From IMG/VR virus record IMGVR_UViG_3300021140_000485: a DNA stretch of 64,000 nucleotides; one strand, written 5' to 3'. Below, piece by piece: positions 3,584 to 49,284 of this stretch. This DNA comes from a virus (taxonomy: Duplodnaviria > Heunggongvirae > Uroviricota > Caudoviricetes). The position numbers and the translations under genes are program-made. The notes below the pieces were generated by a model. The model was given only the letters and a program-made list of their open reading frames with translations, was not told the DNA's origin and ran no database searches. The first letter of the stretch is position 1; each line of letters opens with the position of its first letter.

Positions 3584-3610
3584 AATAATTTTTATTTATA
3601 AATAGTTTGG

Positions 3611-3672
3611 AATATGAAACCTGAGAATGAATGTAGGTGTGGTGTGTGAGGGTTTATCCCGAACCTCACCCA
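3611..3672. repeat. Copy B of the 62-bp intergenic element.
   Basis: 61/62 identity to 646..707. It lies 28 nt upstream of the start of gene 3209..3583. Confidence 0.85.
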
Positions 3673-3718: not shown

Positions 3719-4090
3719 ATGAAGTATATCATCACCGAAAGTAAATTAAACGAATATATCCTTAGTGTCATTGAAGAAATGTTCCCTGTTGATGATATTA
3801 ATTATACTGAAGCGTATGACGATGATGGGAATCCTGACGATACTGCCTATGTGTTTTATCTTGGGGATTATGAAAATGATGAAGTTATCTTCAGATGGTA
3901 TAGTAAGGATTATTGGGATGGTCCAGACGAAAGTACAGTTGATTATAGGATTAGACAATCCCCACTTTTAGTTTTTGAATCCAATAATACCTTTTATGAA
4001 ATAAATTCTATGTTCCAAAATTTATGGAAACCCGTATTTATTAAATGGTTTTACGAATCATTTTCATTACCAATTAAAACAATACTTTAA
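3719..4090 (+). CDS. Hypothetical protein of the leader family ('MKYIITESKLNEY').
   Basis: Paralogous N-terminus with the adjacent gene. Acidic and aromatic-rich. Confidence 0.6.
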   Translation: MKYIITESKLNEYILSVIEEMFPVDDINYTEAYDDDGNPDDTAYVFYLGDYENDEVIFRWYSKDYWDGPDESTVDYRIRQSPLLVFESNNTFYEINSMFQNLWKPVFIKWFYESFSLPIKTIL

Positions 4091-4091
4091 T

Positions 4092-4451
4092 ATGAATTAC
4101 CTCATCACCGAATCTCAGCTTGAATCTTTGGTAGAACAAAAATCCCCGAACAAAAACTTTGATAGATACAAAAAGATTATTATGAAAATGTTCCCTGAGA
4201 TTACTATGATGTTCTTAGGTGATAGTGTGGAAGGTTGGAGTTCATCTGATAATAAAGCATATCAAAAACAAATTATTAAAGTTGTATTTGACCCACGTAA
4301 AATCACTCAAGGTGAATACTTTGATGGATATTCTTATGACGCATATGAATCGTGTCGAAAAGTCCGTAAATTTATGATGTATGACCTTAATATGGACTTT
4401 GGTCGGCAGTGGGATTTAGATTGTTATCAAATCACTCTTAAAAAACTCTAA
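4092..4451 (+). CDS. Hypothetical protein of the leader family ('MNYLITESQLESL').
   Basis: Tandem paralogue of 3719..4090 with different codons but the same N-terminal peptide. Confidence 0.6.
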   Translation: MNYLITESQLESLVEQKSPNKNFDRYKKIIMKMFPEITMMFLGDSVEGWSSSDNKAYQKQIIKVVFDPRKITQGEYFDGYSYDAYESCRKVRKFMMYDLNMDFGRQWDLDCYQITLKKL

Positions 4452-4825: not shown

Positions 4826-5254
4826 TTAAACTGTTGGTCCACATCCAGGATTTTTGTTTGGTGAGGTACATTTAACACCCGTGTAAAAGTCAAACTTCTG
4901 TGGTTGGACTCTTATGTTATCCCACTCACCGAAATACTCTTTAAACTTACCGTTCTTAATCCTCTCCCTTATCTCATCTAATTGTGGTGTGTATTTGTTT
5001 TGTTGTTTGGCACCATACATAACACTCTCTATCTTTGCTTTGAAGAACGCTCCTGTGGGTCCGAGTTCTACAGGTGTTGATTGTGAAGTATCTTTGGTAT
5101 CATAAAACTTACCGTTCTCACCTTTAACATAGTAACCTAAAAGACTATCAATATCTTTTTCTAATCCACTTAAAACAGTTACAGGGTCTTTACCTTGTTC
5201 AGATATTACACCCATAACTTCCTTAATTCTTGATATTTGTTCTTGTAGGTTCAT
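4826..5254 (-). CDS. Hypothetical protein with the leader 'MNLQEQISRIKEVMGVISEQ'.
   Basis: Its first 28 nt are identical to those of the next gene. Confidence 0.65.
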   Translation of the reverse strand: MNLQEQISRIKEVMGVISEQGKDPVTVLSGLEKDIDSLLGYYVKGENGKFYDTKDTSQSTPVELGPTGAFFKAKIESVMYGAKQQNKYTPQLDEIRERIKNGKFKEYFGEWDNIRVQPQKFDFYTGVKCTSPNKNPGCGPTV

Positions 5255-5255
5255 A

Positions 5256-5693
5256 TTAACAATCTCCTATACCATAAAAAATGCAGTCAATAAGTTCTGC
5301 ATCATTTTTATCCCATATGTAAACCATAGAATCATTATCATTCATTCTATCCCTACATAATCTATGGTGTCCATCTATTACAATTAGTTTTCCCTTGTGT
5401 TTGTATAAATGAATATCTTTTTTATCATATGTTTCATCGGACATATCATTTACGTAGTCCATATTAATATCCTTTTGAACACTATAAACTTTCTTTGTTG
5501 GTGACAATCTTTGTTTTTTTGGGTTAAGTGTGTGTATTAATTCATCACTATCATTTACCACCATATCAAAAATGTTTGTGGATTCTAAATCTTTTTTTAA
5601 TTCAGGTTCGTACATAATTCCACAGTCTTTATGACTTTCGGTTATCATCCCCATCATTGATTGTATTCTTGATATTTGTTCTTGTAGGTTCAT
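5256..5693 (-). CDS. ParB/Srx-like nuclease-domain protein with the leader 'MNLQEQISRIQSMMGMITES'.
   Basis: The motif 'LIVIDGHHRL' is the DGHHR signature of ParB-like nuclease domains. Confidence 0.65.
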   Translation of the reverse strand: MNLQEQISRIQSMMGMITESHKDCGIMYEPELKKDLESTNIFDMVVNDSDELIHTLNPKKQRLSPTKKVYSVQKDINMDYVNDMSDETYDKKDIHLYKHKGKLIVIDGHHRLCRDRMNDNDSMVYIWDKNDAELIDCIFYGIGDC

Positions 5694-6478
5694 TACTTTT
5701 TATTCTTAACACAGTTAGGATATCTTTTACCAAACATCGTCTTCATACCTTTTTGAGTATATCCTTTCCAACATCTTTCAGTAATCTCGGTCTCACTTAA
5801 CGAACCTTTTAATTCATCTGCTTGTCGAGCTCGTAATTTCATCAAATACATTCGTTCAATCCACTCATCAGGCTCTTTTTGAAGTTCATCCTTCTTAAAT
5901 AAAGTATTTGGAATAATAAAGTCAATCATTTCGTCTTTGGTAATACCTTCAGGTTTTGTTGGTGGTGGAACACACACACTATTCATTTCTTGGTCTACAG
6001 ATATCTCATCAACATCAATATCATCCCTACCAACTATTTTATTTACCTCATCCAATTGTGTATCTTCAAACCACTGAAGCATCAAGTGAGTCAAATAAGT
6101 CCCTCTAAGTGATAGAATATTTAAAGTTTCTTTGAACTTACCTTTTGGTATAAATAACGTTCCTGATATAAATGCTCGTTCCATCATTTTTCTTGGGTCA
6201 TCCCACACACTTTCATCGTTGTGGAAAAATAATGCCAATTCCATTATAATTTTCCCGTCCTTACACCATTCCAAATCGTATCTTGTCTCATAATGTTTTA
6301 TAAGATATACATTGGAACCCTCAACATACTTATTCAGAATGTTATAAACCACTTTTTCTATATTAGGCGTAGGCTTAGTATATTTGGACCTAATCTGTTC
6401 CATCAATATTTCTTTAACACAATTCGTCAAGTTCATAATAATAAATACTTGGTTAATATTTATATTAACAATAGCCAC
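5693..6478 (-). CDS. Hypothetical protein.
   Basis: 261-aa ORF with a basic Cys-containing C-terminal tail. Confidence 0.55.
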   Translation of the reverse strand: MAIVNININQVFIIMNLTNCVKEILMEQIRSKYTKPTPNIEKVVYNILNKYVEGSNVYLIKHYETRYDLEWCKDGKIIMELALFFHNDESVWDDPRKMMERAFISGTLFIPKGKFKETLNILSLRGTYLTHLMLQWFEDTQLDEVNKIVGRDDIDVDEISVDQEMNSVCVPPPTKPEGITKDEMIDFIIPNTLFKKDELQKEPDEWIERMYLMKLRARQADELKGSLSETEITERCWKGYTQKGMKTMFGKRYPNCVKNKK

Positions 6479-6502: not shown

Positions 6503-6549
6503 CGTTACCGTTTCGGTAACAAAAAAAAGGGGAATTCGCTACTCCCCTT
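6503..6549 (-). terminator. Tandem hairpin terminator (GTTACCG-ttt-CGGTAAC and GGGGA-n9-TCCCC), with A/T-runs on both sides.
   Basis: Perfect inverted repeats. Lies at the 3' end of gene 6551..7174. Confidence 0.6.
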
Positions 6550-6550
6550 T

Positions 6551-7174
6551 TTATTTTAAACTCTCAGGTAAATAAAGTAATGTTGGGTTTTTCTTTTGAA
6601 TATCAACATCAGGATATCTTTCCTTGAATTTCATTGTATTGAAGGGTTGTGTGATGATGTGTACCCCACTCCTTGTTTTAATGTATGTCATAAATGTATC
6701 CCTACCATCTTCCTTATGTAACTCATTAATGAATTCTCTCATAGAAGTGTAATAACTGTTATGTGCAAAGTTATCAAGACTTACATTGTCAATATCAATA
6801 ACCCAACGTTTCTCTTGTGTTTTAATTTGACCAACAACAGAATCAAACAGGTGTTGTTGTTTTAGGTTTCCGTCCTGAATTCTTTGAGCAAGGGCGACCA
6901 TCATATTCAATGATACATCTTTGTGGTTTTGCTTTTGAACGTGAATATATGCACGAGCTTTGAACATCTCACAGAGTTGTTTAATCTCTTCATATCGTTT
7001 TTCAAGATACTCAATACTACTAACACAATATGTTTTAATAGTCCTAACCGATTGGTGATTATCTCTTTCACCTTCAGGTTGGTCTTTCTTTCTCTTGAAG
7101 ACATAGAGCATATAAAAATCACCCTCGTTTTCGAAGTTAAGTAGTTGTTTTATTTGTAGTATATTATCTATCAT
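6551..7174 (-). CDS. Hypothetical protein.
   Basis: 207-aa ORF. Confidence 0.55.
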   Translation of the reverse strand: MIDNILQIKQLLNFENEGDFYMLYVFKRKKDQPEGERDNHQSVRTIKTYCVSSIEYLEKRYEEIKQLCEMFKARAYIHVQKQNHKDVSLNMMVALAQRIQDGNLKQQHLFDSVVGQIKTQEKRWVIDIDNVSLDNFAHNSYYTSMREFINELHKEDGRDTFMTYIKTRSGVHIITQPFNTMKFKERYPDVDIQKKNPTLLYLPESLK

Positions 7175-11053: not shown

Positions 11054-11743
11054 TTATCTGATTTTACCAACACTAAACCCGTCGCTATCTACAACAATCC
11101 CTGTTCTTTTGAAGAAATTTTCATAGAAGTAGTCATTTAATTCATCTTGTATCTCCATACTAACTTCCCATCCAATCTCCTCATCATTAACAACATCTTT
11201 CAAATTTCTAGGTTCATAGTCACCTGTCATAACTAAACTAACAGTACCATCTACGATTGCCCAAAAATCAATTCGTTTTAAATCTTCATTTACGTGGTAG
11301 TTTTTTATTTTGAAGTCAAAGTTGTATCCACCACTTTCTACGTGATGTTTTGATAACAAAAAGTCTAAATTATTTTTAATTATATTATCAAAACCACCCA
11401 ACACATTTCTAATTAAAATATGACGAGCTTTTTCAAGAGTCATCCCATTTTTACCAATAAAAAACTCTTTGAATGTGTCATCCAATAAAGGTCGTTTAGT
11501 TAAAACTCTTTTAACAGTCTCATCGAATGATGTGTCTTCATTGATTGGATTTGGTTGGTTATCGTGCCAACACTTATGACAAATGTATGTGTCATCACCA
11601 CCTTCAGATATCTTCCAAGACCACCCACAATTATCACATATAACCTCACCATTCTCAACTTTTTCGGTAAGTAATGTCATAACTTGTTTTATACGTGAAA
11701 TGTCTTCAGATAGTCTCATATTAATAAATATCCCTATCACCAA
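11054..11743 (-). CDS. Zinc-ribbon protein with the leader 'MRLSEDISRIKQVMTLLTEK'. The likely start is the internal Met at 11719.
   Basis: CxxC...CxxC ('CDNCGW...ICHKCW'). Confidence 0.55.
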   Translation of the reverse strand: MVIGIFINMRLSEDISRIKQVMTLLTEKVENGEVICDNCGWSWKISEGGDDTYICHKCWHDNQPNPINEDTSFDETVKRVLTKRPLLDDTFKEFFIGKNGMTLEKARHILIRNVLGGFDNIIKNNLDFLLSKHHVESGGYNFDFKIKNYHVNEDLKRIDFWAIVDGTVSLVMTGDYEPRNLKDVVNDEEIGWEVSMEIQDELNDYFYENFFKRTGIVVDSDGFSVGKIR

Positions 11744-16282: not shown

Positions 16283-17137
16283 TTACTTAATCCCATACAT
16301 TAGATTGGTTCCATTTCCCAGGACCGTGGACGGTACGTTACCTTTCCACTTCTCAATCCATTGTTGTTGAATCAACATAGGAGTTAGTGTTTGTTGTCGT
16401 AGTCGGTTTGCTTCCGCTTCAGCCTTAGCTCTTGTTAACATCGCCTGAGCGTTACCTTCAGCAGTTGCCACTTTAATCTTAGCCTCAGCCTCAGCTTGTT
16501 TTACTTTGTTCTCAGCCGTTAAAGCCGCTTGGACCGCGTTATTCTTAGCTTCAATTGCTTTCTTGAATGTTTCAGGGTAAACCAAGTTAGATGTAAACTG
16601 ACTTAGAATAAACCCTTCAGGTTCAAGTTGTTTTACCAAAACACTTCTAACCTTCAACTCAAACAATTCACGGTTTGAAATCAATTCATCCGCAGTGTAT
16701 GAGTTAGCAACAACTCGGAAAGCATCATACACAGCCGTCTTTAGAAATCCACCTTCAATATCACCCAACTCAACACGATACTTTGAAAAAATGTAAGGTA
16801 CTTTTTCACGTTTAACTGAGTAGTTCAACAATGGTGATACGTGAAACTCGGAACCGTCTTTTGAGTTAACAACAAACGACTCATCGATTTCATTCTCCCT
16901 GTCCAACTTATATTCTTTGTGTTGAACGTATGTTGGGAACTCAACAATTTTTGTACTGATTGGGTTATAAAATACCCACCCTGTTACCTCAGTAACATCA
17001 TCAACACCTTTACCATCTCCATAGAGATTTACCTTAACACCTACGTGTCCTGCATCAATACGTTCACATCCTGCGAACATAGTGAAAATTAATACCAAAG
17101 CAATTACGCTTCCCAAAATTTTAGTTAGATTGCTCAT
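16283..17137 (-). CDS. SPFH/band-7 (prohibitin/HflC-like) membrane protein.
   Basis: N-terminal TM segment, then an SPFH core, then a C-terminal Ala/Glu/Lys-rich coiled coil 'AEAEAKIKVATAEGNAQAM...'. Confidence 0.75.
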   Translation of the reverse strand: MSNLTKILGSVIALVLIFTMFAGCERIDAGHVGVKVNLYGDGKGVDDVTEVTGWVFYNPISTKIVEFPTYVQHKEYKLDRENEIDESFVVNSKDGSEFHVSPLLNYSVKREKVPYIFSKYRVELGDIEGGFLKTAVYDAFRVVANSYTADELISNRELFELKVRSVLVKQLEPEGFILSQFTSNLVYPETFKKAIEAKNNAVQAALTAENKVKQAEAEAKIKVATAEGNAQAMLTRAKAEAEANRLRQQTLTPMLIQQQWIEKWKGNVPSTVLGNGTNLMYGIK

Positions 17138-26219: not shown

Positions 26220-27170
26220 TTCTGGCACTTAGGTTGAGAATACACCTTCGATTAAGAATCTTTAGGGACATTATTGTTTCTTCCCGTTTCCACTACCTTT
26301 TGAGTAGTAATTCTTAGTGACGGTTCCTTAGGGGTACCATTCCTTGAGTCGTGCGGTTACTCTCTTTGTACTTGTTACTCTCCGAGGTTGCCACCCCAGT
26401 GAATCCTTGCGGGATTAGAGAACTTTCTCAAGAATCATTTGGGTCTTGGGAACCCATAATGGCAATGAACATCTCATTACTATGTAGTCACCTTTCGCCT
26501 ACGACTGACAGACACTTTTCCTTCGTCTTTTAGTATTTGCATACTTCAAAATGCAAAGTTGTTGGTCTGTGGATGGTGAAAGTAGCGGTCTGCCAACCAG
26601 ACAAGCCATCTTTTGAACGACTCGATACTGAACTACTCTCTGAGATATCCCTACCTCGATACTTCAAGAAATCTTCATAATTAAAATCTTGGTAGATTCT
26701 AACTAAGGTTACCAACAGCACCACCTGTACGATAACATGACTTTCGTCTTTAAGACACCTCTGATATTGAATCCCGTGATTGTAAAGTTGGATGACTTTA
26801 CTTCTCACAACAATTCTACGAGTTATTCTTATTGTTCTTCCGAACTCAACTCAACGACCCACATCGCTGAGTCATCATTCCATTTTGTCTACAGTGTCAC
26901 CCTCGACTACTCAGGAACAATGATATCCCGCTTGCCTACTCGAGCTCTAAGAACCGAAGTTCAAAGAACCGCAGTCTCCGTTAACCTTCGGAGACCACTT
27001 TATCCCACTTTCGTGGTTTATTTATTGACCATAGGCGGCCAATTATCTTATTTACTAACCTGTTGGTTAGAAGGATAATCAAATATGTAAAAGAACGTGT
27101 TTCGTTAATTGTTTCACAAAGTTAAGAAGATTATTTTAATCTGTCAAGCACTTTGTAAAAGTTTTTTTTG
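26220..27170 (-). ncRNA. Candidate structured noncoding RNA or 3' trailer co-transcribed with tRNA-Met. About 950 nt, elevated GC, no ORF longer than 113 aa in any frame.
   Basis: Bounded by the tRNA (5' side on the minus strand) and a strong terminator (3' side). The frame-track ORFs here are short and non-protein-like. Identity unknown. Confidence 0.3.
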
Positions 27171-27244
27171 TTGCGGGAGTCGGACTCGAACCGACGGCCT
27201 CAAGGTTATGAGCCTTGCGAGCTACCAACTGCTACCACCCCGCG
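27171..27244 (-). tRNA. tRNA-Met (anticodon CAU), initiator-like.
   Basis: Reverse complement reads 'CGCGGGGTGGTAGCAGTTGGTAGCTCGCAAGGCTCATAACCTTGAGGCCGTCGGTTCGAGTCCGACTCCCGCAA'. It shows a cloverleaf, a C1·A72 mismatch, a GTCGG/CCGAC T-stem and TTCGAGT T-loop, the anticodon loop CTCATAA, and no encoded CCA. Confidence 0.85.
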
Positions 27245-31465: not shown

Positions 31466-31492
31466 TTAAAAAGAAAACCCCCACTTTTTTAG
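31466..31492 (-). terminator. Conserved-family terminator ('AAAACCCCCAC-tttttta-GTGAGGGTT').
   Basis: Overlaps the stop of the methyltransferase gene, with a minus-strand U-run. Confidence 0.6.
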
Positions 31493-32358
31493 TGAGGGTT
31501 CTGATTGTTGAAATCGATGACTTGTTGTCTTCGTTGTTCTACGAATAACCCGACTCTGTCTCGAGCCACTTTAGAATAGTTTGGACTCAGTTCAATACCA
31601 ATCCATCTTCTGTCAAGTGTCTCAGCGGCGACCAAACTTGTACCTGAACCTGCGAATGGGTCAAGAACAATGTCATTCTTATACGTAAGAATTTTGATTG
31701 CCTTGGTTGGAATATCCATTGAGAACGTGGCTTTAGTTAGACTTCGTGTGTCAGCAAAGTATTTCCACTGTCCGAAAACCAAATCGATGAACTCACGTTT
31801 TTGTTGTTCCGTATACATCATCTTTGGTCTCATATTACCATCCTTACCTTCTACTTCTCCCATTTCGCCAGTCCATTCAGGTTGACCTTTTACTTTCTTA
31901 ATGTGTTTGTTTTTGTATGCCAAAATAACACATTCTTTTGGGTTATAGATGTAAGGGGCTGAAGGGCTCATCCAAGACCCCCAAGCCGTGGTACGACTTC
32001 TATGTGGTGATTCTTCTTCAAGGTCAACAACTCCGAAGAATTTGTAACCAATCTGTTTCATAATCTGCCACACTTCACTGACCATAAAGATTCTACCTCC
32101 TTTATCCTGACGGTTGATTTCGTATGGGATGTTAAGAGCAATCCTACCATCATCTTTCAATACACGGTATGCTTGTTCCATCCACGAATATGTAAATTTT
32201 ACATATTCCTCCCAAACCATATCATCTTCGTGAACATCATAATCGATACCAACACCATAAGGTGGTGATGTAACAATCAGGTCCACTGAACCTTCAGGCA
32301 TCGAAGCCATCACTTCAATACAATCTCCATTAATTACTCTTCCAATTAAATCTTCCAT
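31489..32358 (-). CDS. DNA methyltransferase (N6-adenine/N4-cytosine, beta-class motif order).
   Basis: Motif IV 'DLIVTSPPYG' near the N-terminus and motif I 'LDPFAGSGTS' near the C-terminus. Confidence 0.8.
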   Translation of the reverse strand: MEDLIGRVINGDCIEVMASMPEGSVDLIVTSPPYGVGIDYDVHEDDMVWEEYVKFTYSWMEQAYRVLKDDGRIALNIPYEINRQDKGGRIFMVSEVWQIMKQIGYKFFGVVDLEEESPHRSRTTAWGSWMSPSAPYIYNPKECVILAYKNKHIKKVKGQPEWTGEMGEVEGKDGNMRPKMMYTEQQKREFIDLVFGQWKYFADTRSLTKATFSMDIPTKAIKILTYKNDIVLDPFAGSGTSLVAAETLDRRWIGIELSPNYSKVARDRVGLFVEQRRQQVIDFNNQNPH

Positions 32359-33532: not shown

Positions 33533-34696
33533 TTAATCGTTATAAATTGAACCACTTTTATTTTCAGACTCTTCGAATTGATGTTGTTCCATAATATCTT
33601 TAAGTGGTGATTTTTGAGTATCAACTTTAGTATTCATATTATGAATAATCTTATCAAGAGTTAATGCAAAGTCCAGAGTTTCGGATATGATACCAACAAT
33701 TTTATATGGGTCACCATTTGATGCCGGTCTACGGTCTTCAACATAACCCTTCCATTCTTTTGATGTAGACAATGGAACTCTGATTGATGCACCTCGGTCA
33801 GCAACCCCCCAACTAAACTTGTCAATAGATTGGGTTTCGTGTTTACCAGTCAAACGAAGATTGTTATCAGAACCGTAATTGTTAATGTGTAACTGATGAC
33901 GTGAATCAAAGGCGTTAAAGATGTTTTTGAAGTATTCATCACCACCTTCATTTCTCATCTTGTCATTTGAGAAGTTACAGTGTAATCCTGAACCATTCCA
34001 ATCACCCATCACAGGTTTAGGGTGGAATTCAATCTTAAAACCATAGTCCTCAGACATTTGTTGTAAAATGTATCTCGACATCCACAAATCATCACCGGCC
34101 TTTAATTTACCTTTGGAGAATACCTGGTACTCCCACTGACCCAATAAGACCTCGGCGTTTGTACCTGTAATTTCAATACCTGCCAAGATACAATTTTCCA
34201 TATGAGTATCCACAAATTTTCTACCGTTAACTTGTCCGTTACCTACACCACAATAGTATTTTCCTTGTGGTTCAGGATATCCATTCTCAGGGAAACCCAA
34301 AGGTCTACCATCTTTCATAATGGTATACTCTTGTTCAAAACCAAACCAAAGGTCCTCTTCTTCTTCCCCAACAAGACTTCTTGTATTTGATACGTGTGGA
34401 GTCCCATCGGGATTCATAACCTCACACAACACCAAGAAAGACCATAGACCACCTTCGTTAAGTGAGTTGTGATAAACTCTAACAGGTTTCAAAATACAAT
34501 CAGAAAAATGTCCGTCAGCTTGTTGTGTTGATGAACCATCAAAACTCCACTCAGGGCAATCCTTCAGTGTTATAATATCCCCATATGGAATATTCTGAAG
34601 ACCAGTCTCTTCTTTTTCAATCACCTTAACCTTACTTCTAAGATTAGGTTCTGGCTGATACCCATCCAACCACACATATTCTAATTTAACTTTCAT
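33533..34696 (-). CDS. Glutamine synthetase type-II-like protein.
   Basis: 'LEYVWLDG', 'FDGSSTQQADG..SD..L.PV', 'LVLCEV', 'GVADRGASIRVP' and 'NGDPY' are colinear with the GSII beta-grasp and catalytic domains. Confidence 0.75.
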   Translation of the reverse strand: MKVKLEYVWLDGYQPEPNLRSKVKVIEKEETGLQNIPYGDIITLKDCPEWSFDGSSTQQADGHFSDCILKPVRVYHNSLNEGGLWSFLVLCEVMNPDGTPHVSNTRSLVGEEEEDLWFGFEQEYTIMKDGRPLGFPENGYPEPQGKYYCGVGNGQVNGRKFVDTHMENCILAGIEITGTNAEVLLGQWEYQVFSKGKLKAGDDLWMSRYILQQMSEDYGFKIEFHPKPVMGDWNGSGLHCNFSNDKMRNEGGDEYFKNIFNAFDSRHQLHINNYGSDNNLRLTGKHETQSIDKFSWGVADRGASIRVPLSTSKEWKGYVEDRRPASNGDPYKIVGIISETLDFALTLDKIIHNMNTKVDTQKSPLKDIMEQHQFEESENKSGSIYND

Positions 34697-38424: not shown

Positions 38425-39447
38425 GTGATGACAGGGAAATTACAAAGATTAATCGACGATGTTAATAATGGTAAATTTGATATTATCAAAGATTTTTTTG
38501 GTGATATGGAAACTTTTTTGGACTATCTTGGTAAAAAAGGTTTGATACACGAATTAGACCTTATTAACAACGAAGAAGAATTCGAATATGAAGTTAACAA
38601 AATAGCCCTCGCAATTAAAGAACATAATCCCGAAAAATTTAGAGAATATGTTTTATCTTCATTAAGTGATGTTACTTATGAAAATGGTGAATACTATGTG
38701 ACTTTGAATGATAAAAGTAGACTCGCGTATCTTTTTTGTGATGATAGAAGAAATGGTATGTCTCAATCAACAATATCAGAGATACTAGATGGTGAATGGG
38801 ATTTTGATTTTTGGGATACTACCGATAATGTTTATAGGGATGTTATTCAAGAACTAAATAAGGATAATCTTACTTATTTATCAAAAAAAATAAGTAACGA
38901 ATTATCTGACGTTAAGGTAGAACCTGAAACAGAATTGTTAGAAGAAATTGCCGAGGAACAAGGTCATCCTGAATATGTAACCTTAACCCCCGAGTTGATT
39001 CACGACAGAATATTCAATGATGAGGATTCAACAGAAAGTATTTTGAATGAAACCGAAAACATTAAATCAGATTTACACTCATTACATAACAGAGCATATG
39101 CAAATGCTTATGAAGATGAGGTGTATAGTGGTATAATGGATGAACTTGAAACATTTTTTGATATGCGCCATTCTGATTGGATAACAGTTCCAAGTAGTGT
39201 AAACCCAAACAAATCTTATACCTATTTCAAAGTTAAAATAAATAATTTTGATTCAGAGATTTCCGATTACCTTAATAACGCGAAGAATCATAATGAACCA
39301 TTAAGTAATTATGGTGACTATCTTAGTATTTTGAGTGAAAATATTAGTTATGGTAGTGCCAATTGTTTGGTATATTACACGCCTGATTATGCGGATTGGC
39401 CAAAAACAAAAGAAAATATTAACGAACTTTTTGGTGACTATTTTTAA
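38425..39447 (+). CDS. Acidic hypothetical protein.
   Basis: 340-aa ORF. Confidence 0.55.
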
Positions 39448-42400
39448 ATAATCCCCTTTAGTTTAGCTTTATCCAAAACTTTTTTAGCTCTCTCTTCAAG
39501 AGATGTTATTCTAACCTCTTGTTCTTTTAACGCTTCAATGTTAACGGCAATCATTTCTTTATAATTCATTGTTAACACTTTACCTTCAGTATAAATAACT
39601 TCAGGAACATAAGGCAAAACTTCTTGAGCAATAAATCCAATAGCTTTTTTGTCATTAGAACTATATTCTTTACCTCTCCATTTAAATGTGACACCTCTAA
39701 TACTTAATATCTTATTTAGAGCATCACCGATAGGTTTAACATCTTTTTTCAGTCTTTCATCTGAAGGACCTGTTGGTCCTTGTGGACCTTGAGCTCCTTG
39801 TGCTCCGAATGTTGAACTAGCACCTCCTTGAGCCCCTGGTGCTCCTTGTGCCCCTGTTGGACCTGGTGTTGCAGAACCTTGAGCACCTGTTGGTCCTTTA
39901 AGACCTGTAGGTCCTTGTGCACCGACGGCTCCCTCAAAACCTTGTGAACCTTGAGCTCCTTGAGCCCCTGTTGCACCTTGTGCACCTTGTGGTCCATTAG
40001 GAGACGTTGGCCCTTGAGCCCCTTGAGCTCCTTGAGCTCCAATAGCACCTGAATTTCCTTGAGCGCCTTGAGCACCTTGAGCGCCGGCTGTACCTGAACC
40101 TTGAGCACCTTGAGGTCCTGTTGGTCCTGTTGCACCTTGAGGTCCTGTTGGTCCTGTTGCACCTTGAGCACCTTGAAATCCTTGACCCCCTGTAGGTCCT
40201 ACGGCTCCTTGTGAACCTTGAGCCCCTTGAGGTCCTGTTGGTCCTGTTGCACCTTGAGCTCCTTGAGCTCCAACAGGTCCTTGAGCACCTGTGGCTCCTT
40301 GGAATCCCTGCTGACCATTAGGTCCTATTCCACCTACGTCCCCTTGAGCACCTTGCGCTCCTTGGAATCCTTGTCCTCCTGTTGCTCCTTGAGACCCTTG
40401 AGCACCTGTTCCTCCTTGAGCTCCCTGAAAACCTTGTCCTCCTTGCGCCCCTTGTGGACCTTGAGCTCCTGTGGCACCTTGAGCACCTTGAGCTCCCTGC
40501 CCACCTTGCGCTCCTTGTGGACCTATTGCTCCTTGGAAACCTTGTGCTCCTTGAAAACCTTGTCCTCCTTGAGCCCCTTGAGTTCCTGTTGCTCCTTGAG
40601 CACCTTGAGCCCCTTGTGCTCCCTGTCCTCCTGTTGCGCCTTGAGCTCCTTGTGCTCCTTGTCCTCCTGTTGCTCCTTGGACTCCTTGTCCACCTGTTGC
40701 TCCTTGCGCACCTTGGTTACCAACAGCACCTTGAGCTCCTTGGAAACCTTGAGCCCCCTGACCTCCTTGTGCACCTTGTACTCCAACAGCACCTTGAGCC
40801 CCTTGTGCTCCTTGGAAACCTTGTCCTCCTTGAGCACCTTGAGTACCTGATATACCTACAGAACCTTGAGAACCTTGAGCCCCTTGTCCTCCTTGAGCAC
40901 CTTGAGTTCCTGATACACCTTGAGCTCCTTGAGCCCCTTGGAAACCTTGACCTCCTTGAGCACCTTGAGTTCCTGTTGTACCTTGAGCCCCTTGAGCTCC
41001 TTGAAAACCTTGTCCTCCTTGAGCTCCTTGGGTTCCTGTTGCTCCTTGAGCTCCTTGAGCTCCTTGAGCTCCTTGGAAACCTTGAGCACCTTGGGTTCCT
41101 GTTGCACCTTGAGCCCCTTGAGCTCCTTGGAAACCTTGACCTCCTTGAGCCCCTTGGGTTCCTGTCGCTCCTTGTGCACCTTGAGCTCCTTGTGCTCCCT
41201 GTCCACCCTGAGCACCCTGAGTTGCTGTCGCTCCTTGCGCTCCTTGAGCTCCTTGAGCTCCTTGACCACCTTGAGCACCTTGGTTACCAACTGCCCCTTG
41301 TGAACCTTGAGCCCCTTGTGCTCCTTGTCCACCTTGGGCTCCCTGATTACCTTTAGCCCCTTGAGCTCCTTGCGCCCCTTGGGCTCCTTGACCACCTTGA
41401 GCACCTTGGTTACCAACTGCCCCTTGTGAACCTTGAGCCCCTTGCGCTCCTTGTCCACCTTGCGCTCCTTGTCCACCTTGAGCACCTTGAGCCCCTTGTG
41501 CTCCTTGAGCACCTTGTCCTCCTTGAGCACCTTGTGTTCCCGTTGCACCTTGAGCACCTTGAGCTCCTTGGAAACCTTGTCCACCTTGAGCACCCTGTGT
41601 TCCTGTTGCTCCTTGAGCCCCTTGTGCTCCTTGGGCTCCTTGTCCACCTTGAGCACCCTGTGTTCCTGTTGCACCTTGAGCACCTTGTGCTCCTTGGGCT
41701 CCTTGTCCACCTTGGGCACCTTGGTTACCCTTTCCACCTTGAGCACCTTGTGCTCCTTGGGCCCCTTGTCCACCTTGAGCACCCTGATTACCTGTCGCAC
41801 CCTGAGCCCCTTGAGCTCCTTGAGCTCCCTGTCCACCTTGTGCACCTTGGTTACCAACCGCTCCTTGTGAACCTTGAGCTCCTTGAGCTCCTTGTCCTCC
41901 TTGGGCGCCTTGGTTACCAACCGCTCCTTGTGAACCTTGAGCTCCTTGAGCACCTTGTCCACCTTGAGCACCTTGATTACCTTTTCCACCTTGAGCGCCT
42001 TGAGCTCCTTGAGCTCCTTGTCCTCCTTGGGCACCTTGGTTACCAACCGCTCCTTGTGAACCTTGAGCTCCTTGAGCTCCTTGTCCACCTTGAGCGCCTT
42101 GATTACCTTTTCCACCTTGGGCGCCTTGAGCACCTTGAGCACCTTGTCCTCCTTGAGCCCCTTGGTTACCTGTTGCCCCTTGAGCTCCTTGTGCGCCTTG
42201 TGAACCTTGCCCTCCTGTTGCTCCTTGGGAACCTTGAGCTCCTTGGGCTCCTTGACTACCAACCGCTCCTTGAGCACCTTGGTTACCAGTATTACCCTGA
42301 GCACCTTGTCCTCCTTGGGCACCTTGATTACCTTGAGCGCCTTGTGGTCCAGCATTTACATTACCTTTCCATCCGGTAGAGTCTATTATTAATCCGTAAT

Positions 42401-42602
42401 TGTTTGTAACTGTATTAGCACTTAAATTTGTATTTTGTACTTGGAATATAGGTGCTGTCTTGGCAATTTTTAGATATGTTGTTGTTTGATTTACAACATA
42501 ATTCAATGTAGAACTAGAATATACCAAATCACTTCGAGTATTCCCCGAATCATAAAATTGTATTGTTATACTTGCAGGTACTATTATTATATTCTCAGCC
42601 AC
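39444..42602 (-). CDS. Collagen-like (Gly-X-Gln triplet) fibre protein with a C-terminal intramolecular-chaperone / peptidase S74 domain. Candidate tail fibre.
   Basis: About 290 uninterrupted G-x-Q triplets. The C-terminus '[12 protein letters not shown]....FKWR......GFIAQEV' matches the SDxRLK auto-cleaving chaperone signature. The N-terminal roughly 90 aa is non-repetitive. Confidence 0.85.
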
Positions 42603-45600
42603 GTAATTTTTCTTCTAATTCAGTTAATGATGTTTTAAGGACATCCATTCTTTTTTGATTTTCTTTTACAAAAGATACTCCAAGAGTAACAAGTAGTTCA
42701 TACTGTAAAGATTTATAACCAAACTTATCTTCCCAAACAATTTCAGGAAAATATTTTTCAACTTGTTGGGCGATAAAACCTATACTTCGTTTTTTAAGTA
42801 AATACTTTTCATTGTCTTTATACAATGAAAGTTGTGGTATATTTTCAACCCAATCAAAAGATACACCATTCATATTAACAACATCAATAGCTCTATCAAA
42901 TTTCTTGATGTTTTCTTTCAATCTTCTATCTGAAGGTGGCCCTTGAGGTCCTTGAGCACCTTGTGCTCCTTGTGGTCCCGTTTTACCAGCATTACCTTGA
43001 GCACCTTGAGCACCTTGTGGTCCTGTAACACTAGCACCTTGAGCTCCTTGAGAACCAGTACCTCCTGCAGGTCCTGTTGCACCTTGAGCTCCTTGGACTC
43101 CTTGTGGACCTGTCCCACCTGTAACAGCTCCTTGAGCGCCTTGTGCTCCTTGTGCCCCTGCAGCTCCTTTTCCTCCTTGAGCACCTTGTGCTCCTGTGGA
43201 ACCCTGAGTTCCGGCCTTTCCTGTTGCACCTGTAGCACCTTTTGGTCCCGATGGTCCTTGAGCTCCTGTTGGTCCTTGAGGTCCTCTTGACCCTTGTACA
43301 CCTTGTCCTCCTGTCTGACCTGCAGCACCTTGAGCCCCCTGTGTCGCACCCGCAGGTCCTTTTGTTCCTCCCGCACCTTGAGCACCTGTAGGACCTGGAC
43401 CTCCTGTAGGACCTGTCGCTCCTTGAGACCCTTGAGAACCTTGAGCTCCAGCGGGTCCTTGAGCACCTTGTGTAACACTCGGATTCCCTTGTGGTCCTTG
43501 TGAACCTGTTGCTCCTGTGGCACCCTGAGCTCCTTGGGTACCTCCTTGAGCACCTGTGGCTCCTTGTGGGCCTTGAGGTCCTTTTGCTCCTTGAGCTCCT
43601 TGAGGACCTCCTTGAGCCCCTATCGGACCTTGGGCTCCTTGAGCTCCTGTAGCACCTGTTGCACCTTGAGTACCTCCTGTAGCACCTTGGAATCCCTGAG
43701 GTCCTGTAGCACCTGTAGCACCCTGAGCCCCTTGAGGTCCTCCTTGTGCACCAACAGGTCCTTGAGCACCTGTAGCACCTGTAGCACCTGGAGCCCCTTG
43801 CGGAGTACCTTGTGGTCCTTGAGCACCTTGAGCTCCTGTTGGTCCTGTAGAGCCTGTTGCTCCTTGGACCGCTCCTTGAGCACCTTGATTACCAACAGCA
43901 CCTGTTTGTCCAGTCGCACCTTGTGCCCCTTGAGCACCTTGAGGTCCTCCTGGATTTCCCTGAGCACCTTGGGCTCCTTGTCCACCTTGAGCACCCTGTG
44001 CACCTGTTGGTCCTCCCTGTGCACCTGTTGGTCCTTGAGCACCTTGGGCTCCTTGAGCACCTTGTCCTCCTTGTACACCTCCTTGAGAACCTGTTGGTCC
44101 TTGAGCTCCTGTCGCACCTGTGGCACCTGTCGCTCCTTGCGTTCCTCCTTGAGCACCTGTTGGTCCTTGAGCCCCTGTTGCACCTGTGGCTCCTGTAGCC
44201 CCTTGAGGTCCTCCTTGTGCACCAACAGGTCCTTGAGCTCCTGTAGCTCCTGTGGCTCCCGTCGCACCCTGAACTCCACCTTGAGCACCTGTTGGTCCTT
44301 GAGCTCCTGTAGCTCCTGTGGCCCCTGTTGCACCCTGAACTCCACCTTGAGCACCTGTAGGTCCTTGTGCACCTGTTGTTCCATTAGCACCCGTTGCCCC
44401 CTGAACTCCACCTTGAGCACCTGTTGGCCCTTGTGCACCTGTTGTTCCATTAGCACCTTGAGCCCCTTGAGGTCCTCCTTGTGCACCTGTTGGTCCTTGG
44501 GCACCTGTTGTACCTTGAGCACCTTGAGCTCCTTGAGAAGCTCCTTGTGCTCCTTGTGAACCAACGGCTCCTTGAGCACCTTGTGCTCCCTGATTTCCCT
44601 GAACTCCACCTTGTGCTCCTGTAGGTCCTTGGGCACCTGTTGTACCTTGAGCACCTTGAGCCCCTTGAGAAGCCCCTTGAGCTCCTTGTGAACCAACGGC
44701 TCCTTGTGCACCCTGTGCTCCCTGATTTCCCTGAACTCCACCTTGTGCTCCTGTAGGTCCTTGTGCACCTGTTGTACCAGCGGCACCTGTTGCCCCCTGA
44801 ACTCCACCTTGAGCACCTGTAGGTCCTTGTGCTCCTGTGGCACCTGTCGCACCTGTTGCCCCTTGGACACCTCCTTGAGCTCCCGTACTACCTTGAGCTC
44901 CTTGAGCACCTGTCGTACCCTGAGCACCCTGAGAAGCACCTTGTGCACCTTGTGAACCAACGGCTCCTTGAGCACCTTGTGCTCCCTGATTTCCTTGGAC
45001 ACCACCTTGAGCTCCCGTAGGTCCTTGGGCACCTGTCGTACCTTGAGCACCTTGAGCACCTTGTGATGCACCTTGAGCTCCTTGTGAACCAACGGCTCCT
45101 TGAGCACCTTGTGCTCCCTGATTTCCTTGGACACCACCTTGAGCACCTGTTGTCCCTTGAGCACCTTGAGCTCCTGTCGCCCCTGTCGCTCCTTGCGTTC
45201 CTCCTTGAGCGCCCGTACTACCTTGGGCACCTTGGGCACCTGTGGCTCCTGTCGCTCCTTGTGTTCCTCCTTGAGCACCTGTACTACCTTGAGCACCTTG
45301 TGCCCCTGTCGTACCTTGAGCACCTTGTGAACCTCCTTGAGCACCTTGTGAACCAACGGCTCCCTGAGCACCTTGGGCTCCTTGTCCTCCTTGTGTCCCA
45401 CCTTGAGCACCTGTACTACCTTGAGCACCTTGAGCACCTGTCGTACCTTGAGCACCTTGTGAACCTCCTTGAGCTCCTTGTGAACCAACGGCTCCTTGAG
45501 CACCTTGTGCTCCCTGATTTCCTTGGACACCACCTTGAGCACCTGCAATACCTTGAGCACCTTGTGCCCCTGTTGTTCCTTGCGCCCCTTGAGACGCTCC

Positions 45601-46017
45601 TTGAGCACCTTGTGCTCCTACTGCTCCTTGAGCACCAGTACTACCTTGTGCTCCTTGAGCTCCTGTACTACCACCCCCACCTTGAGCTCCCGTTGTTCCT
45701 TGTGCCCCAACATTTCCTTGAGCTCCTTGAGCACCTTTAATAGTTGTTTGTGGTCCAATCCATACACCGGCATTATTAATCATATTTTGACCACCAACCC
45801 ATAAACCTGATGGTGAACTTGATATTGTAACACCTGTAGTTGTTATGTCATTATTACTGAAAACTACTAATGATGGACTTGTTGTTGCAGAAAATTTGAC
45901 ATCACCCGGTGCAACCATATTAATTTGGATACTATCCGCAGCAGACGCCCCCTCGTATACTATATGAGGCGATGAGTTTCCTGTAGTTCCACTTGGATAT
46001 ATTATTACGTCTGCCAT
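42595..46017 (-). CDS. Collagen-like fibre protein paralogue 2 with a C-terminal S74 chaperone domain.
   Basis: Gly-X-Y repeats with periodic one-residue insertions ([12 protein letters not shown]). The C-terminus is '[12 protein letters not shown]...VSFDW...GFIAQQV'. Confidence 0.85.
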
Positions 46018-46020
46018 ATA

Positions 46021-49000
46021 TTAATTTCTTTCAACCTTTTCTTCTAAATTTGTTAATAGAGAATCCAAGTCATCAATAAATACTTGTTGCTCTTTTATGG
46101 CTTCTACTAAATAAGCGTTAAGTGAGGTATAGTTTAAACTATAATAACCGCCACCCCTTAATTCAATTATATCTGGTATTACACTTCTAACTTCTTGTGC
46201 AATAAAACCAAACGAGTGTAGTTTACCATCTCGTTTCATTGCCTCATAGTTGGGGTCTAATTCGTTCCAATCAAATTCAACAGGATTTAATTGTAAAACA
46301 CTTTCTAACGAGTTTTCAATAGTAGTAATTTCTTGTTTTAAACTAATATCTGAAGGACAAGTATTAGGAACACCAATAATTAAACAACCTCCTGTGTCTA
46401 GGTCGTAATAAAGTGATGATAAGTCATACCATACGGGAGCAGGTAAAGGAGTTACACAACTAAGATTTGCACAGTCAGTCGCATTTTCAAACACAGATGT
46501 GTTGTTAGTCCAAGTAGTAATATCGTCTGGCGAGTATATGTCCCCATAAAATCCGCGGTTTAATGAACAAGCACTACCCGGGTCACCCGCATAATAACCT
46601 GAATATTGAAAACAAGATGCTGATGGTGGTCCTGCCGGTCCTGGCGCTCCAGGAGCACCCTGAGCACCTTGTGGTCCCGTATCACCTTGAGCTCCCGTAG
46701 CACCTGTTAGTCCGTCGGCACCTGCAGGTCCTGGTGCTCCTTGAGCACCTTGTGTTAACCCTTGTGCACCTTGTGGTCCTTGAGCGCCTTGTGCACCTTG
46801 TGGTCCTTTTGCACCTGTAGGTCCTGGTGCTCCTTGTGCACCTAATGGACCGGCACCTCTAAGTTCCCCTATTCCCCCTTGAGCCCCCTGAGCACCTGAT
46901 GGTACAATTGGTGTAGGTCCTTGAGCACCTTGTGCACCTTGTCCTCCACCTGCTCCTTGAGCTCCTTGGAATCCAAGAGGTCCTTGAGCACCTTGAGTAG
47001 CACCTGTTGGTCCTTGAGCCCCTGTAGCACCTTGTGGTCCAGGAAGTCCAGCAATTCCTTGTGTTCCAACATTTCCTTGAGCACCTGTAGGTCCGGGAGA
47101 ACCTTGAGCACCTGTTGCACCGATATTTCCAATAGGACCAGGACCTGTTCCTTGAGCTCCTTGTGGTCCTTGAACACCAGGAAATCCTGTGTTTCCTTGT
47201 GCACCTGTGGCACCTGTTGCACCTGTTGGTCCAACATCTCCTTGTGAACCTTGAAATCCAAAAGTACCGGTACCACCACCAGCACCTGTATTTCCAACAT
47301 CACCTTGTGCACCTGAAAAACCTGTGGCACCTTGAGCTCCTTGAGAACCTGTAGGCCCAACCGGACCTGTTGCTCCACCCGCTCCTTGAGAACCTTGAGC
47401 TCCTGTAGCACCAGTATTTCCAACATTACCTTGTGAACCTTGAGCTCCTTGAGCCCCTTGTGGTCCTCCTCCTCCCACAGGACCCGCAAAACCTGGAAAT
47501 CCTGTAGAACCTTGAGAACCTTGAGCTCCTTGAGCCCCTTGTGGTCCAACGGCCCCTTGAGAACCCTGAGCTCCTTGAGCTCCTTGAGCACCTATTGTAC
47601 CTGAATTACCTGTTGGCCCAAAGACTCCTACCGTTCCTTGAGCTCCTTGTGCTCCTTGTGGTCCTCCTGAACCTTGTGGACCTCGAGCCCCTTGTGAACC
47701 CTGAGCACCTTGTGCTCCTTGTGCACCCACATTACCTGTAGGTCCAACGGCTCCTTGTGAACCCTGAGCACCTTGTGCTCCTTGTGCACCTTGGTTACCT
47801 GTAGGTCCAACGGCTCCTTGTGAACCTGTATTACCTTGAGCTCCTTGGTTACCGGTATTTCCTTGGGCTCCTGTATGTCCTGTTGAACCTTGTGCTCCTT
47901 GAGCTCCTGTTGCACCTCCATTACCTGTTGGTCCAACCGCTCCTTGGAAACCTGTGTTACCTTGTGCTCCTTGATTACCTGTGTTTCCTTGTGCACCTGT
48001 ATGTCCTGTTGAGCCCTGAGCACCTTGTGCACCTGTTGCCCCACCATTACCTGTAGGCCCTACATTACCTTGTGAACCTTGAGCCCCTTGTGCCCCTTGA
48101 GCCCCTTGAGCCCCTTGTGGTCCTACATTACCTTGTGAACCTTGTGCTCCTTGTGCTCCTTGTGGTCCTGTTGAACCTGTTGGTCCGACATTACCCTGAG
48201 CTCCCTGATTACCTTGAGCACCTGTTGGCCCCACGTTTCCTTGTGCACCTGTGTGTCCTGTTGAACCCTGAGCACCTTGTGCTCCTGTAGCTCCCGCATT
48301 ACCTGTTGGTCCTACGTTACCCTGAGAACCTTGATTTCCTTGTGCACCTGTATTACCAGTATTACCTTGAGCACCTGTATGTCCTGTTGAACCCTGAGCG
48401 CCTTGTGCTCCTGTCGCACCTCCGTTACCTGTTGGTCCGACATTACCCTGAGCGCCCTGATTACCTTGTGAACCTTGTGACCCTGTTGCACCTGTTGGTC
48501 CGACATTACCTTGTGCTCCCTGATTACCTTGTGAACCTTGTGACCCTGTCGCTCCTGTTGGTCCGACATTACCCTGAGCACCTTGATTACCTTGAGAACC
48601 TTGAGCTCCCACATTACCTTGTGCACCAGGATGTCCTGTTGAACCCTGAGCTCCTTGAGCACCTGTCGCACCTCCGTTACCTGTTGGTCCGACATTACCC
48701 TGAGCACCTTGATTACCTTGAGAACCTTGAGCTCCCACATTACCTTGTGCGCCAGGATGTCCTGTTGAACCCTGAGCTCCTTGTGCACCTGTCGCTCCTC
48801 CGTTACCTGTTGGTCCGACATTACCCTGAGCGCCCTGATTACCCTGAGCACCTGTTGGTCCCACGTTTCCTTGTGCACCAGGATGTCCTTGAGAACCTTG
48901 AGCATTTGCTGAACCTTGAGCTCCTTGATTACCCTTTCCACCTTGTGAACCTTGTGAACCCTGAGCACCCGTATTTCCAATGGCTCCTTGAGCTCCTTGA

Positions 49001-49284
49001 TTACCTTGGAATCCTGTTATATTTGTTCCAGGTCCTAACCAAGCACCTGTACCATTTAATACTTGAATTCCTCCAATAGTTAGATTATTAATGATATTAA
49101 TATCATCATACGCTTGGATACCACCCGATGACATTAATAATGTAGAACCCCACTTTATAGAAGTACCAGCACCATAAGGTCTGACCTCTAACCTCAAAGT
49201 TCCCGTATTTTCAAAATCAATATAGGGAATCCTTCCGGGATTCGGGACTAAATTACCAGGTACAATTGTTATATTTTTTGCCAT
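46021..49284 (-). CDS. Collagen-like fibre protein paralogue 3 with a Cys-rich linker and a C-terminal S74 chaperone domain.
   Basis: G-N-x / G-A-Q triplets. The C-terminus is '[13 protein letters not shown]...VEFDWNE...FGFIAQEV'. Confidence 0.85.

Follow-up and report, generated by a model that had tools for sequence, protein, structure and literature searches.

Two adjacent genes, here named geneA and geneB, open with the same short coding segment, termed the leader, in the 64-kb window (64,000 nt) of the IMG/VR viral record IMGVR_UViG_3300021140_000485 that was analyzed in this work. Comparison of these genes with related phage contigs revealed two characteristic features of the leader: (i) it is conserved as a peptide and, beyond the needs of the peptide, as DNA, and (ii) single genes enclosed between two successive leaders move between distantly related phages. 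We consider it very probable that the leader is a shared tag whose DNA bounds exchanged cassettes. Somewhat less firmly, we regard as probable an overall explanation in which a conserved leader core is carried by many unrelated accessory genes of uncultured large phages, these genes are exchanged as cassettes, and the leader serves as their address tag.

The core of the leader, ATGAACCTACAAGAACAAATATCAAGAAT (29 nt), has exactly two copies in the window by exact-match search, at 5665-5693(-) and 5226-5254(-); no match to it, even with up to three mismatches allowed, appeared in any of 100 shuffles that preserve dinucleotides. The two copies are the opening 29 nt of the open reading frames (ORFs) 5256..5693(-), encoding geneB (145 residues, a leader and a ParB/Srx-fold body), and 4826..5254(-), encoding geneA (142 residues, a leader and a body of unassigned fold with just four homologue clusters found). 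The second copy is also the right-hand end of the segment that the window has in common with other phages. Past the identical core, a repeat search detected a weaker similarity between the two genes, 76 nt at 74% identity (5179-5254 and 5618-5693). The proteins have residues 1-19 in common, MNLQEQISRI(K/Q)xxMG(V/M)I(S/T)E; these are the geneB leader MNLQEQISRIQSMMGMITE (codons 1-19, 5637..5693(-)) and the geneA leader MNLQEQISRIKEVMGVISE (codons 1-19, 5198..5254(-)), both of class I as defined below, with scores of 33.8 and 38.3 bits, respectively, in a search with a leader hidden Markov model (HMM). The preliminary description of this DNA had reported an identical 28-nt start followed by divergence; the identity and the divergence were confirmed, whereas the identical stretch measures 29 nt and the similarity of the peptides covers about 19 residues. 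An identity running through the whole genes, which would have pointed to plain duplication, was not found: BLASTP aligned the two proteins over residues 1-38 alone and found no alignment in the bodies. Neither geneA nor geneB matched a family in Pfam or PHROGs. The genes are tightly stacked: the stop codon of the upstream gene 5693..6478 overlaps the ATG of geneB (TAATG), and between the stop of geneB and the ATG of geneA there is a single base. A third, divergent leader gene that starts with MRLSEDISRIKQVMTLLTE was found at 11054..11719(-) (leader HMM, 14.8 bits); its leader is immediately followed by a Cys-rich zinc-ribbon-like segment.

The leader represents a family of two dialects, MNLQE-x-I-x-RI-[KQR][ES]MMG[LVI]xxE (class I) and MNLQE-[SN]-IRRILREE (class II), that are present together in 28 of 118 loci. 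A search with a degenerate DNA pattern for M-N-L-Q-E-x-I-x-R-I matched at least 120 stretches of IMG/VR viral contigs, several of them with 3-6 copies and on contigs of up to 335 kb. Within ~1.1 Mb of sequence fetched from IMG/VR, the leader HMM identified 279 leaders, nearly all at an ORF start; the internal ones (11 of 279) lie in fused proteins with the Met replaced. Single-linkage clustering of 273 bodies (proteins trimmed of their first 20 residues) gave 80 clusters that are mutually unrelated. Leader genes form tandem, tightly abutting arrays, the longest of which comprises ten consecutive genes on one 28.9-kb contig. Both dialects are absent from 50,697 GenBank phage records. When applied to 596 Gb of bacterial and archaeal genome sequence, the leader pattern gave 59 scattered matches, mostly due to chance (e.g., in the interior of ABC transporters), which indicate no host; the sole true leader among them, as judged by the HMM, is on a 3.3-kb binned contig. 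The string 'MNLQE' was not found in the literature searched, and a 40-residue concatenation of two leaders, compared with a protein database, returned 25 uninformative candidates.

Among metagenomic homologues of geneB the body is kept and the leader varies, being MNLQEQISRIQSMMG, MNLQE[NS]IRRILREE or, in one case, MKKIIKLTESDLHKIVKRVILKE. Some homologues of 243 residues (P0014-P0020) consist of a leader, an unrelated domain of ~100 residues, a second leader, and the geneB body. Such in-frame two-leader fusions retain the internal leader, often with its Met replaced (e.g., KSRNLQESIRRILREE), and were also observed at L001 (10001-10732), L006, L065, L091, L107, L109, L115, L118, and L123; in L006, the CWKGY tail described below is fused straight to a leader. 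Other N-termini recur in a comparable way. The N-terminus MKY[LI]ITES[QK]L opens many small proteins of related contigs (loci L007, L053, and others), as well as two adjacent genes of the window, 3719-4090(+) starting with MKYIITESKLNEYI and 4092-4451(+) starting with MNYLITESQLESLV. A further leader, MKKIIRLTESDLTRIVKRVI[NK]E, is found on diverse bodies and takes the place of the MNLQE leader on the geneB homologue P0022. Both look like sister leader families.

Conservation of the leader is evident at two levels. In the peptide, positions 3, 7, 10, 13/14, and 17 are repeatedly hydrophobic, and those in between vary freely; synonymous variants of the leader are found inside arrays, and geneA orthologues still bear the leader at 42% identity. 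In the DNA, the codon for Asn2 is AAC rather than AAT by 120 to 34, a preference that is reversed in the bodies of the same genes (AAT over AAC, 117 to 33). Leu3 is encoded by CTA in 93 of 154 leaders, as compared with 21 of 254 cases in this background, and Ile7 is encoded by ATA in 144 of 154. An internal Shine-Dalgarno site with a second start within the leader was considered and rejected, as no consistent Shine-Dalgarno-like codons precede the MM pair. Promoter-like sites showed no enrichment (11 found, 15.2 expected), and no hairpin was found at the leaders.

The exchange of single genes is seen for geneB. The same geneB protein is encoded on contigs L002, L004, and L005, where the arrangement of the window is reproduced, and on L003, where its context is different. 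A cassette at 5218..5698(-) that comprises the geneB leader, the geneB body, and the first 29-36 nt of the next leader is 96-100% identical in nucleotides to segments of three otherwise divergent contigs: L003 (100% over 473 nt, a stretch that begins 5 nt ahead of the geneB ATG and reaches nt 29 of the next leader), the IMG/VR contig L192 (98.9% over 471 nt, window positions 5693..5223), and the 272.6-kb IMG/VR contig L193 (96.3% over 481 nt, window positions 5693..5218). In all three, the identity ends at window positions 5226-5218. The flanks of the cassette in L003 and in the window are unrelated on both sides, and the sole other gene that these two have in common is 50% identical at the protein level; the genes common to L192 and the window share 40-45% protein identity. 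Beyond nt 29, the leader of geneA, TAAGGAAGTT..., no longer agrees with the downstream leader of L003, ACAATCAATG.... Because a nucleotide identity of 96-100% contrasts with a protein identity of 40-50% for the other genes, geneB can be recognized as a leader-bounded cassette that was recently exchanged. The proposal of recent recombination, with bodies swapped behind a fixed leader, is borne out by these three contigs and by the ~80 clusters of bodies; comparison of the locus across related phages agrees with it, as no two of the four contexts of geneB share an upstream or a downstream gene, with homology running from the ATG to 29-36 nt into the next leader.

Over all loci, the ends of alignments are clustered between -30 and +60 of leader starts, and alignments that reach a gene start break there for 89% of leader genes and 55% of other genes; these breakpoint statistics are suggestive only, because the loci were chosen for their leaders and alignments run through any conserved leader, irrespective of the true crossover point. 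At identities of at least 93%, homology ends at -6..+8 and at +28..+49 of the leader start, and such scatter is more readily explained by homologous recombination than by a fixed, site-specific junction. The ends of the cassette have no inverted repeats of the attC type, and no integrase is encoded among the neighbors; together with the varying homology ends, these observations rule out site-specific cassettes of the integron kind. The cassettes could be exchanged by homologous recombination inside near-identical leader DNA during co-infection. A double crossover, in the leader of geneB and in the leader of the next gene, would replace the body behind a fixed start, and in the simplest reading the 29-nt identity is the footprint of the right-hand crossover.

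An exhaustive profile search yielded 24 relatives of geneB. In these, Q73, H109, H110, and R111 do not vary, and D107, G108, and D115 are nearly invariant; for residues 107-111, this pattern holds across 20 homologues with identities as low as 21%. The DGHHR motif quoted in the preliminary description, within LIVIDGHHRLCRDRM, is indeed present at residues 107-111 (5361..5375(-)), where strand 102-107 meets helix 109-117. It is the same motif as DGHHRW in the PDB entry 1vk1, and geneB has the conserved Gly-x-x-Arg motif of the DGHHR type at the strand end and helix start. An AlphaFold2 (AF2) model of geneB, computed with an alignment that includes distant homologues, has a predicted local distance difference test score (pLDDT) of 89.7 and a predicted template modeling score (pTM) of 0.80; it supersedes an earlier model from a shallow alignment (pLDDT 58), the Foldseek matches of which were meaningless. 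Comparison of the new model with PDB by Foldseek gave ~45 top matches that all have the ParB/Srx fold, at weak E-values of 0.05-1, including ParB, Noc, KorB, sulfiredoxin, 1vk1, free serine kinase, PadC, and Osa. As all top matches of a confident model belong to this fold, the modeling supports assignment of the geneB body to the ParB/Srx superfamily, by fold only and not by sequence family. Indeed, geneB matches none of the Pfam ParB families at E<=0.1, even below threshold; distant homologues have sub-threshold ParBc_2 matches (E 0.027 and 9e-4), and the best match of the geneB profile among PDB sequences is 1vk1 with an insignificant E-value of 0.75. A domain similar to geneB was also detected in P0044, a portal and Mu-F fusion protein of 1632 residues from another phage, at residues 977-1045 (hhalign probability 95.5%, E 1.5e-8).

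The relatives of geneB within this superfamily (1vk1, which is ParBc_2-like, SerK, SbnI, sulfiredoxin, PadC, KorB, and the DdrB-like ParB of phage P1) have the fold in common with it. In contrast to them, geneB has no significant Pfam ParB match, consists of a single domain of ~125 residues without a helix-turn-helix (HTH), a dimerization domain, or a ParA partner, and has a conserved Cys24 and a C-terminal DCIFYGIGDC of its own. Being a single-domain protein of 145 residues in all, with no HTH and no ParA-like neighbor, geneB is not a partition ParB. The structures closest to it are kinases, proteins that bind nucleoside triphosphates (NTPs), and sulfiredoxin, which bind nucleotides or transfer from them. 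Such domains have been suggested to be NTP-regulated DNases, as a hypothesis only, and a nuclease activity is possible for the superfamily (PMC5512222). Thus, of the 'ParB-like nuclease domain' described earlier, the fold stands, by AF2 and Foldseek, a Pfam ParB family is not matched, and the nuclease part is a hypothesis.

Several known phage systems resemble the one described here. In phage T4, the N-terminal leader is the only common part of the internal proteins Ip1-3 and targets these proteins for packaging in the capsid (PMC12373910; PMC3012670; PMC9026906). This capsid targeting sequence (CTS) comprises ten residues, MKTYQEFIAE, and is removed after Glu by the head protease (PMC8442874; PMC9026906); T-even phages have diverse internal proteins in which the CTS alone is conserved (PMC3012670). 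As with the CTS of IPI-III and Alt, an N-terminal peptide of 10-20 residues is the sole similarity of otherwise unrelated accessory proteins, the loci are plastic and differ between related phages, and the peptide may likewise end in an [L/I]-x-Glu type of motif. The leader described here differs from the CTS in sequence and in scale, with ~80 clusters of bodies, arrays of up to 10 genes, and at least two dialects in addition to sister leaders; its bodies are enzymes that are not notably basic, and their packaging and cleavage are putative. In giant phages, head proteins are cut after x-x-Glu, and the paralogues gp53 and gp54 of SPN3US have identical 15-residue N-termini (PMC5694885). These head-packaged jumbo-phage proteins combine identical N-termini with x-x-Glu cleavage motifs and resemble the present case in this respect; they are paralogues with related bodies, whereas here the bodies are unrelated and far more numerous (PMC5694885).

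The promoter-early stem-loop (PeSL) elements in hyperplastic regions of T4-like phages are likewise short conserved exchange points at gene boundaries; they are intergenic composites of promoter and terminator, whereas the segment considered here comprises the first 30-57 coding nucleotides, and its peptide is conserved as well (PMC4122927). Polyvalent proteins and MuF-portal effectors offer a similar repertoire of ParB/Srx, ART-PolyVal, HExxH metallopeptidase-like, peptidoglycan-targeting, and kinase domains, but as single giant polypeptides; here, the domains are encoded by separate small one-domain genes, each with its own leader, and two-leader fusions are occasional (PMC5512222). Overall, the leader genes work like T-even ip/CTS loci and like PeSL shuffling, yet they belong to neither class: the sequence of the leader and the lack of basic cargo separate them from the former, and the lack of an intergenic promoter-terminator from the latter.

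The address-tag explanation assumes that the leader peptide would form a flexible, detachable amphipathic helix followed by Gly and [LI]-x-Glu and would give unrelated proteins a common address. In the AF2 model of geneB, leader helix 3-13 has a pLDDT of ~60, with a linker to the body at pLDDT >90. In 56% of leaders, as compared with 11% of control windows, an [LI]xE motif has its last residue within positions 15-22; in the leaders of the window it is I-T-E19 in geneB and I-S-E19 in geneA. Some leader-gene bodies contain cell-wall domains and no signal peptides (Peptidase_M15_4, 2e-13; PG_binding_1, 6e-10). Other bodies match ART-PolyVal (1.9e-5 and 2.6e-4, below threshold), ParB_N, and, in several cases, the ParB/Srx fold; P-loop kinases, a PTP-like phosphatase, and HExxH proteins were found as well. 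Virion-delivered polyvalent proteins have the same domain repertoire (PMC5512222). The geneB-like domain inside the portal and Mu-F fusion P0044 also speaks for such a role, and for cell-wall bodies without signal peptides and polyvalent-like bodies delivery by the virion is the easier explanation. By analogy with the T4 CTS, the leader may tentatively be taken to load proteins into the virion and to be removed by a head protease, although we would give this specific role less than even odds. On this view, geneB would encode a delivered effector of the ParB/Srx fold that binds NTPs, acts in phosphotransfer, or possibly nicks DNA. Its injection, which had been suggested at the outset along with an anti-host or anti-plasmid role, is a reasonable inference from the T4 CTS and virion-delivered polyvalent proteins; nothing in the results is specific to an 'anti-plasmid' role.

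We regard as rather unlikely a still broader version, in which the leader is part of a general address code of an uncultured jumbo-phage clade, so that any gene that recombines into a slot flanked by leaders gains the tag and becomes a virion-loaded, injected effector in an integrase-free, integron-like system. Such a code would work together with the sister leaders (MKKIIRLTESDL... and MKYLITESQL...) and perhaps with a C-terminal CWKGYTQKGMKTMFGKRYPNCV tail. It would amount to unbundled polyvalent proteins, with dozens of enzymes (among them several ParB/Srx proteins, ADP-ribosyltransferase-like proteins, kinases, phosphatases, and cell-wall hydrolases) carried separately.

Several observations weigh against virion loading and the address-tag explanation in general. 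The enrichment of [LI]xE could be explained by a Glu-rich amphipathic helix, and amphipathicity is significant for the class II leader only. Among the large ORFs of the window, none was recognized as encoding a head protease, scaffold, portal, or capsid protein. The leader and T4 MKTYQEFIAE have only the string hydrophobic-Q-E-x-I in common, and the bodies, with isoelectric points of 5.25 for geneB and 8.5 for geneA, are not basic as the T4 internal proteins are. No cultured phage with the leader is present among the GenBank phage records. Finally, the mRNA around both leader starts of the window is less structured than 196-198 of 200 shuffles (z +1.7 and +2.0), and because of this weak structure the DNA could be conserved in part for the sake of translation initiation.

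Several of these points would equally suit a tag that has another purpose, such as a docking or oligomerization helix, timed degradation, or direction to another compartment, with exchange as a by-product of conserved DNA. Peptide conservation and a detached helix suit a tag of any function, the bodies, unlike the basic T4 internal proteins, are acidic or neutral, head genes and a protease were not seen in the vicinity (64-kb window), and the coexistence of several sister leaders, including MKKIIRLTESDL..., hints at several addresses or partners. Cell-wall bodies that lack signal peptides and polyvalent-like bodies are nevertheless better suited to virion delivery, and we judge another purpose to be unlikely, though it is the least unlikely of the rival explanations. 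A main role as nucleic acid, either as a translation-initiation region (an A-rich, unstructured 5' coding sequence in genes that lack Shine-Dalgarno sites) or as a site for a RegA-like repressor, with the peptide incidental, appears quite improbable. It would account for the synonymous codons being far from background, for the weak folding of the mRNA at both starts, and for genes that abut or overlap the preceding stop with only a weak purine enrichment upstream. It does not explain why conservation has a helical periodicity with polar positions that change freely, why synonymous variants persist in arrays, why internal leaders survive in fusions after loss of the ATG, or why the dialects differ in DNA and keep the same hydrophobic pattern; moreover, a search against Rfam gave no credible match at the leaders.

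The leader might also be a mere recombination linker, kept for shuffling or spread by gene conversion and functional neither as peptide nor as RNA, as a coding analogue of the T4 PeSL, for which these elements provide the precedent (PMC4122927). The breakpoints of the 96-100% identical cassettes lie at leaders, and leaders of one locus are slightly more alike than those of different loci (74% and 67.5%, respectively, for class I; 85% and 83% for class II). However, selection for shuffling would be of second order and weak, orthologous bodies keep the leader through deep divergence (to the 42% noted for geneA), the amino-acid pattern is kept through synonymous change, and leaderless gene boundaries are frequent breakpoints too (the 55% given above), which makes this explanation highly improbable. 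Simple tandem duplication of recent date, followed by divergence, would fit two adjacent genes of similar length on the same strand; it is excluded because similarity vanishes after the leader and the bodies are unrelated by BLASTP, geneB having the ParB/Srx fold and geneA having different, sparse homologues. The presence of the leader on ~80 unrelated clusters of bodies speaks against duplication as well, and an assembly artefact is contradicted by recurrence of the arrangement in independent contigs from several samples. These two explanations are therefore ruled out, with a residual probability that we consider negligible.

Whatever the role of the peptide, single genes travel between phages whose proteins are 40-50% identical, as cassettes bounded by 30-60 nt of conserved coding DNA, and this leader-bounded exchange shows in concrete terms how the accessory regions of jumbo phages can become mosaic. 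Should the leader be an address tag, one motif would reveal which accessory proteins are delivered or co-handled throughout a group of uncultured large phages, namely hundreds of candidate host-takeover and counter-defence proteins that at present have no annotation, and the T4 principle of one leader for many unrelated cargoes would have evolved independently and at a much larger scale. A portable tag that is at the same time a recombination arm may provide a handle for engineering such phages.

The gene upstream of geneB, 5693..6478(-), ends in a conserved C-terminal tail, ...ERCWKGYTQKGMKTMFGKRYPNCVKNKK, at ~5696-5790. The tail has 31 residues, EL[TK]E[KR]CW[KAP]GYTQKGMKTMFGK[RK]YPNCVKKxKK*, and was found in 42 ORF segments of the fetched loci; in 33 of the 42 it is at the very C-terminus, and 20 are followed by a gene with the MNLQE leader within 40 nt. 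At the protein level, the motif is present in 307 GenBank phage records, mostly of T4-like cyanophages, whose DNA matches the tail over ~80 nt at window positions 5694-5780 with 80-89% identity. In cyanophages it sits inside larger proteins, e.g., gp29 of S-SCSM1, annotated as 'virion protein'. The tail could be a second terminal tag or a recombination module. Near its start, the same gene has an in-frame MNLTNCVKEILMEQ (window ~6395-6436(-)), which from its sequence resembles a class II leader that has decayed (MNL...V..IL.E); in public gene calls, the start of this gene is placed further downstream, giving a protein of 236 residues. A strong terminator-like hairpin with a 12-bp stem and a T-run lies just upstream of the gene, at 6524-6552(-). 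The tail gene, geneB, geneA, and two small downstream genes probably form one transcription unit.

The window belongs to an uncharacterized large phage: searches of GenBank phages with the window DNA, the geneA and geneB proteins, both leader dialects, and the type B leader gave no match. Three consecutive genes at 39444-49284(-) encode proteins of 1052-1140 residues with long collagen triple-helix repeats and a C-terminal Peptidase_S74 chaperone domain, and are probably alternative tail fibres. A sigma-70 family factor with regions 1.2, 2, and 4 is encoded at 62651-63460(-), and a protein of 444 residues with leucine-rich repeats (LRRs) at residues ~325-425 at 50612-51946(-); the best PDB sequence matches of the latter are LRR proteins (e.g., Leptospira LIC12759 and SHOC-2). 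The sole tRNA of the window, at 27170-27244(-), has the anticodon CAT and was called as tRNA-Met; it could be a lysidine-modified tRNA-Ile2, because the leaders use ATA almost exclusively (144/154). Comparison with L002 also revealed a 63-nt direct repeat with 98% identity, at 645-707 and 3610-3672, ~3 kb apart. Other recognizable genes of the window encode an SPFH/Band 7 protein (16283-17137(-)), an N4/N6 DNA methyltransferase (31489-32358(-)), a glutamine-synthetase-like protein (33533-34696(-)), a Dam-type methyltransferase (51993-52877(-)), and glycosyltransferases.

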